Positions 10,206 through 11,858 of a DNA stretch of 64,000 bases are shown piece after piece. The position numbers and the translations under genes are program-made. The stretch comes from Escherichia coli (GTDB lineage Bacteria > Pseudomonadota > Gammaproteobacteria > Enterobacterales > Enterobacteriaceae), in assembly GCF_045037415.1 (NCBI RefSeq), contig NZ_CP173438.1; one strand, written 5' to 3'. The notes under the pieces were generated by a model. That model worked only from the letters and a program-made list of their open reading frames with translations. It ran no database searches and had not been told where the DNA came from. How positions within the stretch are numbered: the stretch's first letter is position 1; every line of letters starts with the position of its first letter.

Positions 10206-11858
10206 TTATTTCACGTCCTGACAGGCGTCAGAACGCGGAACAAGACTGATTTCGACACGCCGGTTGACTGCCCGGCCCTGTGGCGTGTCGTTGGTCGCCG
10301 CAGGCTGGCTCTCGCCCAGTCCCTGTACGGCAAAACAGGTGGCCGGGATGTCGCTGGTCTGCAGCATCCAGTTGCGCACCGCTTCGGCACGCCGCAGCGA
10401 TAACTGCTGATTGCTTTTTTCATCGCCGGTGGCATCGGTATATCCGGCCACGAGGATCAGCCAGCCCGGTTTTGCCCGGATGTTCACCAGCGCATCCACC
10501 AGCACTTTTGTCGAGCCGTCTTTCAGGCGGGCCTGTCCGACGTCAAACAGCGACATACTGTCAAGACGCACGGTCTGAACCGGAAGCGAAGCCGTCACGT
10601 CCATTTTTTGCTCAGGCGGACGCCAGTCGCGAATGGCGCGTAATACCGGCTGGCGGATGCGTTCACCGGGGTATAACCCCAGACCGAGACGTAGTGGTTC
10701 TCCTTCCCGGTAATACCCATCGAGCATGACCGCATCGTCTTTCAGCACCGACAGGTGACGGGCTTTGGTGATAAATTCTTCCGCCGGGACGGCATAAAAC
10801 CGGTGCAGATCGTCACCGACCTGCCGTAATAACTGGCGATTTGCCGTGGCTGACAGGCACAGCGCGGCGATACCCGCCACGGTGGTGACGCCCAGCATGG
10901 TCACGCAGGCCCGTCGCAGCGGGGTAAAGCCCGACTGACGCGGCAACCGCCGTAACAGGGCATCCGGGAATGGCAGCGCATCGTCTGTGCCGGTGTCCGC
11001 GATATCCGGCGTCAGGCCGGTTCTGGCGGTGATCCACAACTGCCACAGGTTGTTATCCACCGCAGGCAACGAGGGGACCAGCCCAACGGTCATCGCCAGT
11101 GGTGGACATTTCGCCTCCGGGCCGTTCAGTTCCGCCAGCACATTCAGATCCAGCCACTGCATCAGGCTTTCGGCTTTCAGCAGGTAACAGAGTCGCTGAC
11201 TGCGTTCCTGTGCGCCGGATTGTGCAATCCACTGCGCGGGCATGGTGGTCTCTGCGGATGTTGCTACCTGAACTTCGCCGCCGGTACAGATAAACCACGG
11301 TGAATTCGCTCTCTCCGGCAACGGCGAGCCGGACAGCCCGCTCCAGAGAAGCCAGGGTACGTTTACGCCCGCCCGGCGACGCACCGTCGCCATACTGTGA
11401 GCGAACCGGCGCAGTTGTCCGGTCAGAACCGCCGCATCCCGGTACATGCCGGGCATGACGGTATACGCCACGGCAAACTGCGATGCCCACGCCGGGCGAA
11501 GGGTCAGTAATCGCTCCACCTGCGCCACAAGCTGTTCTTCATCAGAAACAGGCAGATACAGCCCTTCTGAAACCTGCCGGACCGGGCTGTCAGTGAACAG
11601 GTGCGCCGACATATCGCCACAGACCAGCACTACCGGCTGTCGGTAGGTTTCCGGCGGTAGCGATGACGGCCATACGTCGTCCGCTACGACCTGTCCCTTT
11701 TTCTTATGCCAGTACGCCATCACCGCCGCTGTGACGGCGACAAGAATCACTACCACGGCATACTTCACGACCGCAGATACAGCAAAGAAACCCAGCCAGG
11801 TAGTCAGCAGCAACAACAGAGTCCATAACAAAACCGTCTGTTTCAGCGCATTCCTCAC
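10206..11858 (-). CDS. T6SS-associated membrane protein with C-terminal OmpA/MotB-type peptidoglycan-binding domain (TagL-like accessory), 550 aa
   Basis: N-terminal hydrophobic segments (LLWTLLLLLTTWLGFFAVSAVV, VVVILVAVTAAVMAYW); C-terminal OmpA-like signature (LVAGYTDATGDEKSNQQLSLRRAEAVRNWML...GRAVNRRVEISL); located between tssL and hcp. Confidence 0.65.
   Translation of the reverse strand: MRNALKQTVLLWTLLLLLTTWLGFFAVSAVVKYAVVVILVAVTAAVMAYWHKKKGQVVADDVWPSSLPPETYRQPVVLVCGDMSAHLFTDSPVRQVSEGLYLPVSDEEQLVAQVERLLTLRPAWASQFAVAYTVMPGMYRDAAVLTGQLRRFAHSMATVRRRAGVNVPWLLWSGLSGSPLPERANSPWFICTGGEVQVATSAETTMPAQWIAQSGAQERSQRLCYLLKAESLMQWLDLNVLAELNGPEAKCPPLAMTVGLVPSLPAVDNNLWQLWITARTGLTPDIADTGTDDALPFPDALLRRLPRQSGFTPLRRACVTMLGVTTVAGIAALCLSATANRQLLRQVGDDLHRFYAVPAEEFITKARHLSVLKDDAVMLDGYYREGEPLRLGLGLYPGERIRQPVLRAIRDWRPPEQKMDVTASLPVQTVRLDSMSLFDVGQARLKDGSTKVLVDALVNIRAKPGWLILVAGYTDATGDEKSNQQLSLRRAEAVRNWMLQTSDIPATCFAVQGLGESQPAATNDTPQGRAVNRRVEISLVPRSDACQDVK

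Follow-up and report, generated by a model that had tools for sequence, protein, structure and literature searches.

How is the membrane complex of a type VI secretion system (T6SS) fixed to the cell wall when its TssL subunit ends without a peptidoglycan-binding extension? The question is raised by a gene at positions 10206..11858 in a 64,000-nt stretch of Escherichia coli DNA (contig NZ_CP173438.1 of assembly GCF_045037415.1; hereafter the window, meaning this stretch at its full length), which encodes a 550-aa protein ending in an OmpA-type domain and lies between tssL and hcp. We identify this gene with high confidence as the orthologue of TagL (SciZ) in the E. coli T6SS island that sits beside the metV tRNAs and mltA. 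TagL as a separate wall anchor for a short TssL is an already known, textbook arrangement, and the locus itself has been published, so that the identification carries little weight as a discovery and refines our picture of a known T6SS cell-wall anchor. The refinement concerns the central region of the protein, which can now be described as a P-loop-less, TssM-derived module, with numbers for a kinship that reviews state in passing. The gene, the parts of its product, and its partner tssL are as follows.

10206..11858, minus strand: tagL (sciZ-type), 550 aa, predicted inner-membrane peptidoglycan-binding T6SS accessory protein, from the open reading frame (ORF), an identical RefSeq coding sequence, and homology to TagL of the enteroaggregative E. 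coli (EAEC) type
11865..11870, minus strand: ribosome-binding site AGGGAG, 6 nt 5′ of the tagL GTG, read from the sequence
11709..11834, minus strand: N-terminal hairpin of transmembrane (TM) helices TM1 (aa 9-27) and TM2 (aa ~30-50), Kyte-Doolittle peaks 2.2 and 2.6
10929..11666, minus strand: cytoplasmic alpha/beta domain (aa ~65-310) whose GTPase-like, TssM-like fold lacks a Walker A motif (pseudo-NTPase)
10842..10910, minus strand: TM3 (aa 317-339), Kyte-Doolittle peak 2.09, within AlphaFold2 helix 313-356
10599..10841, minus strand: helical linker in the periplasm (aa 340-420) in which N340 and Y396 are invariant, from AlphaFold2 and the family alignment
10236..10577, minus strand: OmpA/Pal/MotB-type peptidoglycan-binding domain (aa 428-541), from PF00691 and matches to TagL structures in the PDB
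11871..12536, minus strand: tssL, short form, 221 aa, DotU domain and one C-terminal TM helix, NF038239 at 283 bits (cutoff 180)

The tagL frame opens with a GTG codon 12 nt after the tssL stop codon and is identical to a RefSeq coding sequence (WP_001243155.1) named 'OmpA family protein.' Its sole Pfam match is PF00691, at aa 437-533 with E 2e-17. A preliminary description of the locus, made from the sequence alone, had placed a separate 550-aa OmpA-domain protein between tssL and hcp and had proposed a profile search of its C-terminus; the ORF, the RefSeq entry, and the strong PF00691 match bear this out. The same description took TssL for a short, 221-aa DotU-type protein with a single C-terminal TM helix, which agrees with the NF038239 match and with the one hydrophobic helix in the protein; no OmpA or peptidoglycan-binding part was found in TssL by NCBIfam profiles or within its ORF.

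Homology to a studied TagL extends over nearly the whole protein. As reference we used the EAEC-type Sci-1 cluster, recognized by Tle1-EAEC and Tli1-EAEC and having the same gene order as the window. TagL/SciZ of the EAEC Sci-1 T6SS is said to have been first described by Aschtgen et al. in 2010. BLASTP aligned aa 14-547 of the window protein collinearly with aa 12-558 of the 576-aa EAEC-type TagL at 36% identity (E 1e-93), and the two TssL proteins are 39% identical. In EAEC TagL, wall binding needs N494, L497, S498, R501, and A502, and D486 lies in the diaminopimelate pocket (PMC8253398). These positions align with N483, L486, S487, R490, A491, and D475 of the window protein, and all six residues are invariant in a 63-member family alignment. 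EAEC TagL (EC042_4528; structures 7BBA and 5M38) thus shares with the window protein its wall-binding residues, an alignable full length, three TM helices, an OmpA-type domain, a short TssL as partner, and the gene order tssB-tssC-tssK-tssL-tagL-hcp-clpV-vgrG. The two differ in length, the window protein being 26 aa shorter, and in chromosomal setting, since the window cluster lies beside metV tRNAs and mltA and the EAEC-type cluster elsewhere. Their cargo differs as well, with an M23 peptidase and others in the window versus Tle1/Tli1 in the EAEC-type cluster.

An OmpA/YiaD/Pal/MotB-type envelope protein unrelated to T6SS would also carry a C-terminal PF00691 domain, and both the generic public names of the protein and its best NCBIfam matches (the YiaD, PA1041, OmpA, and MotB models) could be taken to point that way. 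Those matches, however, are confined to aa about 417-545 and score far under their cutoffs (NF053611 YiaD, 95 bits vs. 175), whereas the N-terminal 420 aa are specific to T6SS clusters. Moreover, there is no cysteine before aa 80 and therefore no lipobox, and among solved structures the nearest are peptidoglycan-binding domains of TagL: PDB entries 7rjj, 5m38, and 7bba, comprising such domains and a close relative, match aa 427/428-547 with E values of 1e-44 to 1e-50. We therefore regard a generic envelope protein as highly improbable and retain the identification as TagL.

The predicted topology of the protein is that of a TagL. An N-terminus in the cytoplasm would be followed by the TM1-TM2 hairpin, the cytoplasmic domain, TM3, and a periplasmic part made up of the linker and the OmpA domain. 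AlphaFold2 places helices over the hairpin (aa 3-24 and 29-58) and in the linker region (313-356, 362-385, and 399-411, with a flexible stretch at 419-424), and the full-length model has a mean predicted local distance difference test (pLDDT) score of 90.3. By hydropathy, Lys/Arg clusters lie on the predicted cytoplasmic sides of all three TM helices, the cytoplasmic flank of TM3 being rich in Arg (LLRRLPRQSGFTPLRR). The OmpA domain would be periplasmic on the basis of this topology. In EAEC, TagL likewise has two TM helices, a cytoplasmic domain, a third TM helix, and a periplasmic part that ends in the peptidoglycan-binding domain (PMC8253398), so the prediction equals the published topology, TM3 included. 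The topology prediction suggested in the preliminary description thus yields three TM helices with the OmpA domain in the periplasm. That description was right about the N-terminal hydrophobic helices and the OmpA end and missed TM3; what it treated as a single unassigned region of ~350 aa is divided into the cytoplasmic domain (~65-310), TM3, and the periplasmic linker (340-420).

The association with a short TssL is kept over long evolutionary distances. The order tssK, short tssL (218-251 aa, DotU), tagL, hcp, clpV is found around family members only 27% and 23% identical to the window protein and around a Burkholderia member, and this conserved pairing is the strongest computational support for a functional link between the two proteins. 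With the N-terminal 421 aa as query, 218 representatives were recovered at 50% clustering, among them full-length relatives at E values down to 1e-78. Nearly all full-length members are 530-620 aa long, which indicates that the N-terminal module always occurs together with an OmpA domain. The members that carry names belong to Enterobacterales, Orbales, and Burkholderiales and are all labelled 'OmpA family protein' or similar, and Pseudomonas proteins of about 570 aa also fall within the TagL fold and sequence family.

These data suggest how the anchor could work. The N-terminal TM hairpin of TagL would dock onto TssL, a short protein anchored by its C-tail in the TssJLM membrane complex, and the periplasmic OmpA-type domain would bind the diaminopimelate part of peptidoglycan, tethering that complex to the wall, so that it may stay in place and withstand contraction of the sheath. 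Santin et al. 2019 (J Bacteriol) reportedly found that the N-terminal TM region of TagL contacts the TssL TM helix. In EAEC, TssJ, TssL, and TssM come down together with TagL in precipitation experiments, and TagL binds directly to TssL; peptidoglycan is bound by the periplasmic domain of TagL both in vivo and in vitro, and T6SS function is lost when the pocket is mutated (PMC8253398, PMC3213119, PMC3426401); it is from this work that we infer TssL binding, peptidoglycan binding, and a need in secretion for the TagL of the window. Anchoring in trans by a TagL-like protein, as the preliminary description had proposed, is upheld by full-length homology to EAEC TagL, the same topology, the conserved residues, and tssL-tagL synteny.

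The same outcome, a periplasmic OmpA-type domain tied to TssL, is reached differently by the long-form ('evolved') TssL proteins (Agrobacterium tumefaciens ImpK and Pseudomonas aeruginosa TssL1; TIGR03350), to which the OmpA part of TagL is also related (E 2e-21 against TIGR03350 and E 4e-7 against PDB 4b62, which is TssL1). Here, in contrast, TssL is short and the OmpA domain sits on a separate polypeptide with three TM helices of its own. That tssL and tagL together encode an evolved TssL was considered and rejected: each gene has its own ORF, a stop codon and a ribosome-binding site lie between the two, and neither Pfam nor NCBIfam found DotU in the 550-aa protein.

What, then, is the part of TagL between the hairpin and the OmpA domain? 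The protein has the TM hairpin, cytoplasmic NTPase-type domain, and TM3 that make up a TssM-type N-terminal module. Pairwise, BLASTP of TagL(1-421) against aa 1-460 of the TssM of the cluster (E. coli) was not significant (best E 0.13), nor was hhalign of the cytoplasmic-domain profile against a single full TssM sequence (probability 0.3). The TagL family profile aligned collinearly with a single TssM N-terminal sequence over 298 columns (71% probability, E 3.7e-5). When both sides were profiles, that of TssM being built from 12 N-termini from plasmid-borne T6SS clusters and E. coli, hhalign of the full N-modules gave 97.65% probability, E 2.6e-12, and a score of 99.5 over 310 columns, pairing TagL 72-406 with TssM 106-433; TM3 and the periplasmic helices alone gave 97.4% probability and E 1.6e-11, the linker (aa 340-420) being homologous to the TssM segment just after TM3 of that protein. 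No score exceeded 25 in the hhalign controls, which comprised mismatched halves, a reversed alignment, and 2 x 30 column shuffles. By these profile comparisons, the N-terminal modules of TagL and TssM are anciently related; the case is strong for TM3 and the juxtamembrane part, and weaker by sequence for the cytoplasmic domain, where the modelled fold lends support.

The kinship covers the N-terminal about 430 aa of TssM (IcmF family). In TagL it ends about 90 aa past TM3, where the OmpA domain follows, whereas TssM has in its place a periplasmic, TssJ-binding domain of roughly 700 aa; TssM is a core component and TagL an accessory one. The IcmF domains PF06761 and PF06744 had no match in TagL and matched just 1 of 63 relatives weakly (E 0.087). 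The best reading makes TagL an ancient, shortened TssM paralogue in which an OmpA domain has taken the place of the periplasmic part, and the central region of TagL is a degenerate TssM-type module composed of a P-loop-less GTPase-like domain, TM3, and juxtamembrane helices. The idea of such a kinship is not new, and the present numbers are a refinement of it: a review groups 'TssM-like proteins ... (TagL/TagP)' (PMC5813230), and TagP has been called 'a TssM derivative' carrying PF00691 (PMC5363822; PMC10433429). From its description, on which our comparison is based, TagP (e.g., TagP1 of the Pseudomonas putida K1-T6SS) has the same architecture as TagL, a TssM-type N-module joined to an OmpA domain.

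Could the gene instead be a TssM fragment or pseudogene remnant fused by chance to an OmpA domain, as the preliminary description had itself envisaged? A topology like that of the TssM N-terminus, the significant profile homology to its N-terminal 430 aa, and the grouping of TagL/TagP in the review would be compatible with such an origin, which we nevertheless consider to have very little chance of being correct. An intact 1110-aa tssM is present elsewhere in the same cluster, and the lack of significant pairwise BLASTP similarity implies that the split is ancient. The full gene occurs in about 1290 E. coli genomes with the 550-aa ORF intact, as well as in Enterobacterales, Orbales, and Burkholderiales, always beside tssL, and T6SS function in EAEC depends on the homologue (PMC8253398).

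The cytoplasmic domain has no P-loop. The segment after strand beta-1 reads VVLVCGDMSAHLF (family consensus PVVLVCGDxxxxLF), and a Walker A motif GxxxxGK[ST] at the P-loop position after beta-1 occurs in 0 of the 63 family members. A Walker-A-like GFVNGGKS (GxxxxGKS) in the relative P0202 was set aside because it lies about 100 residues out of register. Helix alpha-1 is nearly missing from the model of the domain, so that, with no Walker A among the 63 members, catalysis is unlikely. The 550-aa protein does not classify as an active P-loop GTPase or NTPase. Profile searches gave the domain no other identity: Pfam and NCBIfam run on the query and its 63 relatives matched the OmpA domain only, and a hidden Markov model of the cytoplasmic domain searched against all PDB sequences returned chance matches only (E > 1). 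Among the best 50 matches listed by Foldseek against AFDB50 there were family members only, which makes that search uninformative about the next-nearest fold. Rather than an enzyme, we think, the domain is probably a spacer or a structural remnant. According to Santin et al. 2019 (J Bacteriol), the peptidoglycan-binding domain is reportedly the only functional domain of EAEC TagL.

As to TssM itself, Walker A after beta-1 was found in 0 of the 12 TssM proteins of this T6SS clade (L001:6859-10191, minus strand, and loci L008-L019), the segment after beta-1 being IRLLLVTGEPEQAEAIAP in E. coli and RILLCGDDRTMVELLPEI in Cupriavidus. GCLLSGKT in one TssM was discarded since it is not at the aligned beta-1 position. 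For A. tumefaciens TssM, a conserved Walker A motif and ATPase activity have been reported (PMC3346141).

A second, active role for the cytoplasmic domain, either in docking to the baseplate in the manner of TssM or in sensing or regulating assembly, would give a reason for its retention in every full-length family member. The domain modelled alone folds confidently (pLDDT 90.4, predicted template modelling score 0.88), has near-invariant positions in the 63-member alignment (P68, G81, P136, W188, W272, L282, and P298), and is kin to the TssM cytoplasmic domain. Conservation is nonetheless modest, with a mean column identity of 36% and 24% identity to EAEC TagL, and the missing P-loop and near-absent helix alpha-1 speak against catalysis. 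We judge such a role unlikely, and the additional function that the preliminary description had allowed for a large central domain finds no support. It is similarly doubtful, although conceivable, that the pseudo-GTPase domain and the invariant N340 and Y396 could use TssM-type contacts at the base of the complex or with the baseplate and so take part in assembly. We prefer to see the domain as a remnant or spacer.

Several points weigh against our account of this TagL as a wall anchor with a TssM-derived module. The window protein and its studied EAEC counterpart are only 36% identical as a whole, with about 24% for the cytoplasmic domain, and membership in the family rests on pairwise and profile homology, there being no curated TagL model in Pfam or NCBIfam. 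The role of the window allele is predicted from sequence and models. Taken by itself, the cytoplasmic domain compares weakly with TssM (hhalign 38% probability, E 3.3e-4, score 32.7), and its link to TssM leans on a fold match in which the aligned part of the 726-aa target is not visible. Finally, strain E41-1 matches the window with full identity at 1-4500 and 9600-12600, tagL included, and its tssM is split by ISEc12 (L004:8706-14623, about 15-20 kb left of window position 1), so that TagL may lack a functioning machine to hold in place; tssM lies beyond the end of the window, and the split is an observation on E41-1. ISEc12 interrupts tssM in nearly all genomes of sequence type 131 (ST131) clade C, where the system is probably dead (PMC10711316), and in those strains the anchor would probably be idle because of the broken tssM. 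ST131 clade A/B strains, for instance USVAST219 (clade A), are examples with an intact tssM.

The TM hairpin, which is the predicted TssL-docking part, varies between strains. A sharply bounded allelic block spans window positions 11645-11850 (codons ~3-65, the TM1-TM2 hairpin), in which the DNA is 50-63% identical to that of E. coli 2012C-4502, whereas identity is 92-100% in tssL, in the remainder of tagL, and in hcp; in the protein, most of aa 1-65 differs and aa 66-550 are nearly identical. The hairpin allele of the window was found, always at ≥ 99% identity, in 562 of the about 1290 genomes with the full gene. The TssL TM helix is hardly changed between alleles (V196L and Y206H). The block could have arisen by recombination with a diverged donor, or by relaxed or specificity-driven change, and the replacement could bear on partner specificity or on incompatibility between T6SS variants.

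Public names obscure the TagL family. The window gene and its relatives P0076, P0346, and P0348 are called 'OmpA family protein,' 'putative lipoprotein YiaD, partial,' and 'flagellar motor protein MotB,' and one relative is labelled 'ImcF-related family protein.' Because there is no curated TagL model, pipelines name the whole family 'OmpA family protein' and at times YiaD or MotB; a model based on its N-terminal module would mend the annotation.

The remaining T6SS genes around tagL fit its assignment to the cluster, which reads on the minus strand tssB, tssC, tssK, tssL, tagL, hcp, clpV/tssH, vgrG. The nearest are the following.

9657..10148, minus strand: hcp (tssD), 163 aa, 3′ of tagL, TIGR03344 with E 7e-51
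12533..13870, minus strand: tssK, baseplate subunit gene 5′ of tssL, TIGR03353 at 398 bits
6830..9466, minus strand: tssH/clpV, 3′ of hcp, from the ORF and the RefSeq annotation of the identical locus

The cluster adjoins three tRNA-Met genes and mltA, forming an island beside the metV tRNAs, and its G+C content is 54-60% compared with 43-50% in the flanks. At the island edge, between tssB and mltA, the three tRNA-Met (CAT) genes stand in tandem at 16621-16917 on the minus strand; the annotation of strain SA186 has two tRNA-Met genes at this edge and that of E41-1 three. The stretch 9600-12600 is present in 1373 of 5426 genomes, with 100% identity to many complete E. coli chromosomes. The T6SS region of the ST131 strain USVAST219 (CP120633) has a tagL copy that matches at every one of the 1653 nt (100% identity), and in a published account of the matching ST131 locus the gene already bears the name tagL (PMC10711316).

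Directly 3′ of vgrG, at 2119-4482 on the minus strand, lies the gene for a 787-aa protein that RefSeq names an M23 family metallopeptidase, in an arrangement that is the same as in the ST131 T6SS region. It is followed at 1472-2122, also on the minus strand, by the gene for a 216-aa protein with a signal-peptide-like N-terminus. The G+C content of the two genes is 43-44%, against 54-60% in the core T6SS genes, and neither protein matched an NCBIfam model; they are probably an effector and immunity pair. E. coli SA186 has an identical tagL region and other cargo after clpV (L001:12717-15219), namely a frameshifted vgrG/DUF2345 gene followed directly by a gene for an SLT-domain protein, with no M23 peptidase module. 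Since the cargo of SA186 differs despite the identical tagL region, the effector region is mosaic between strains.

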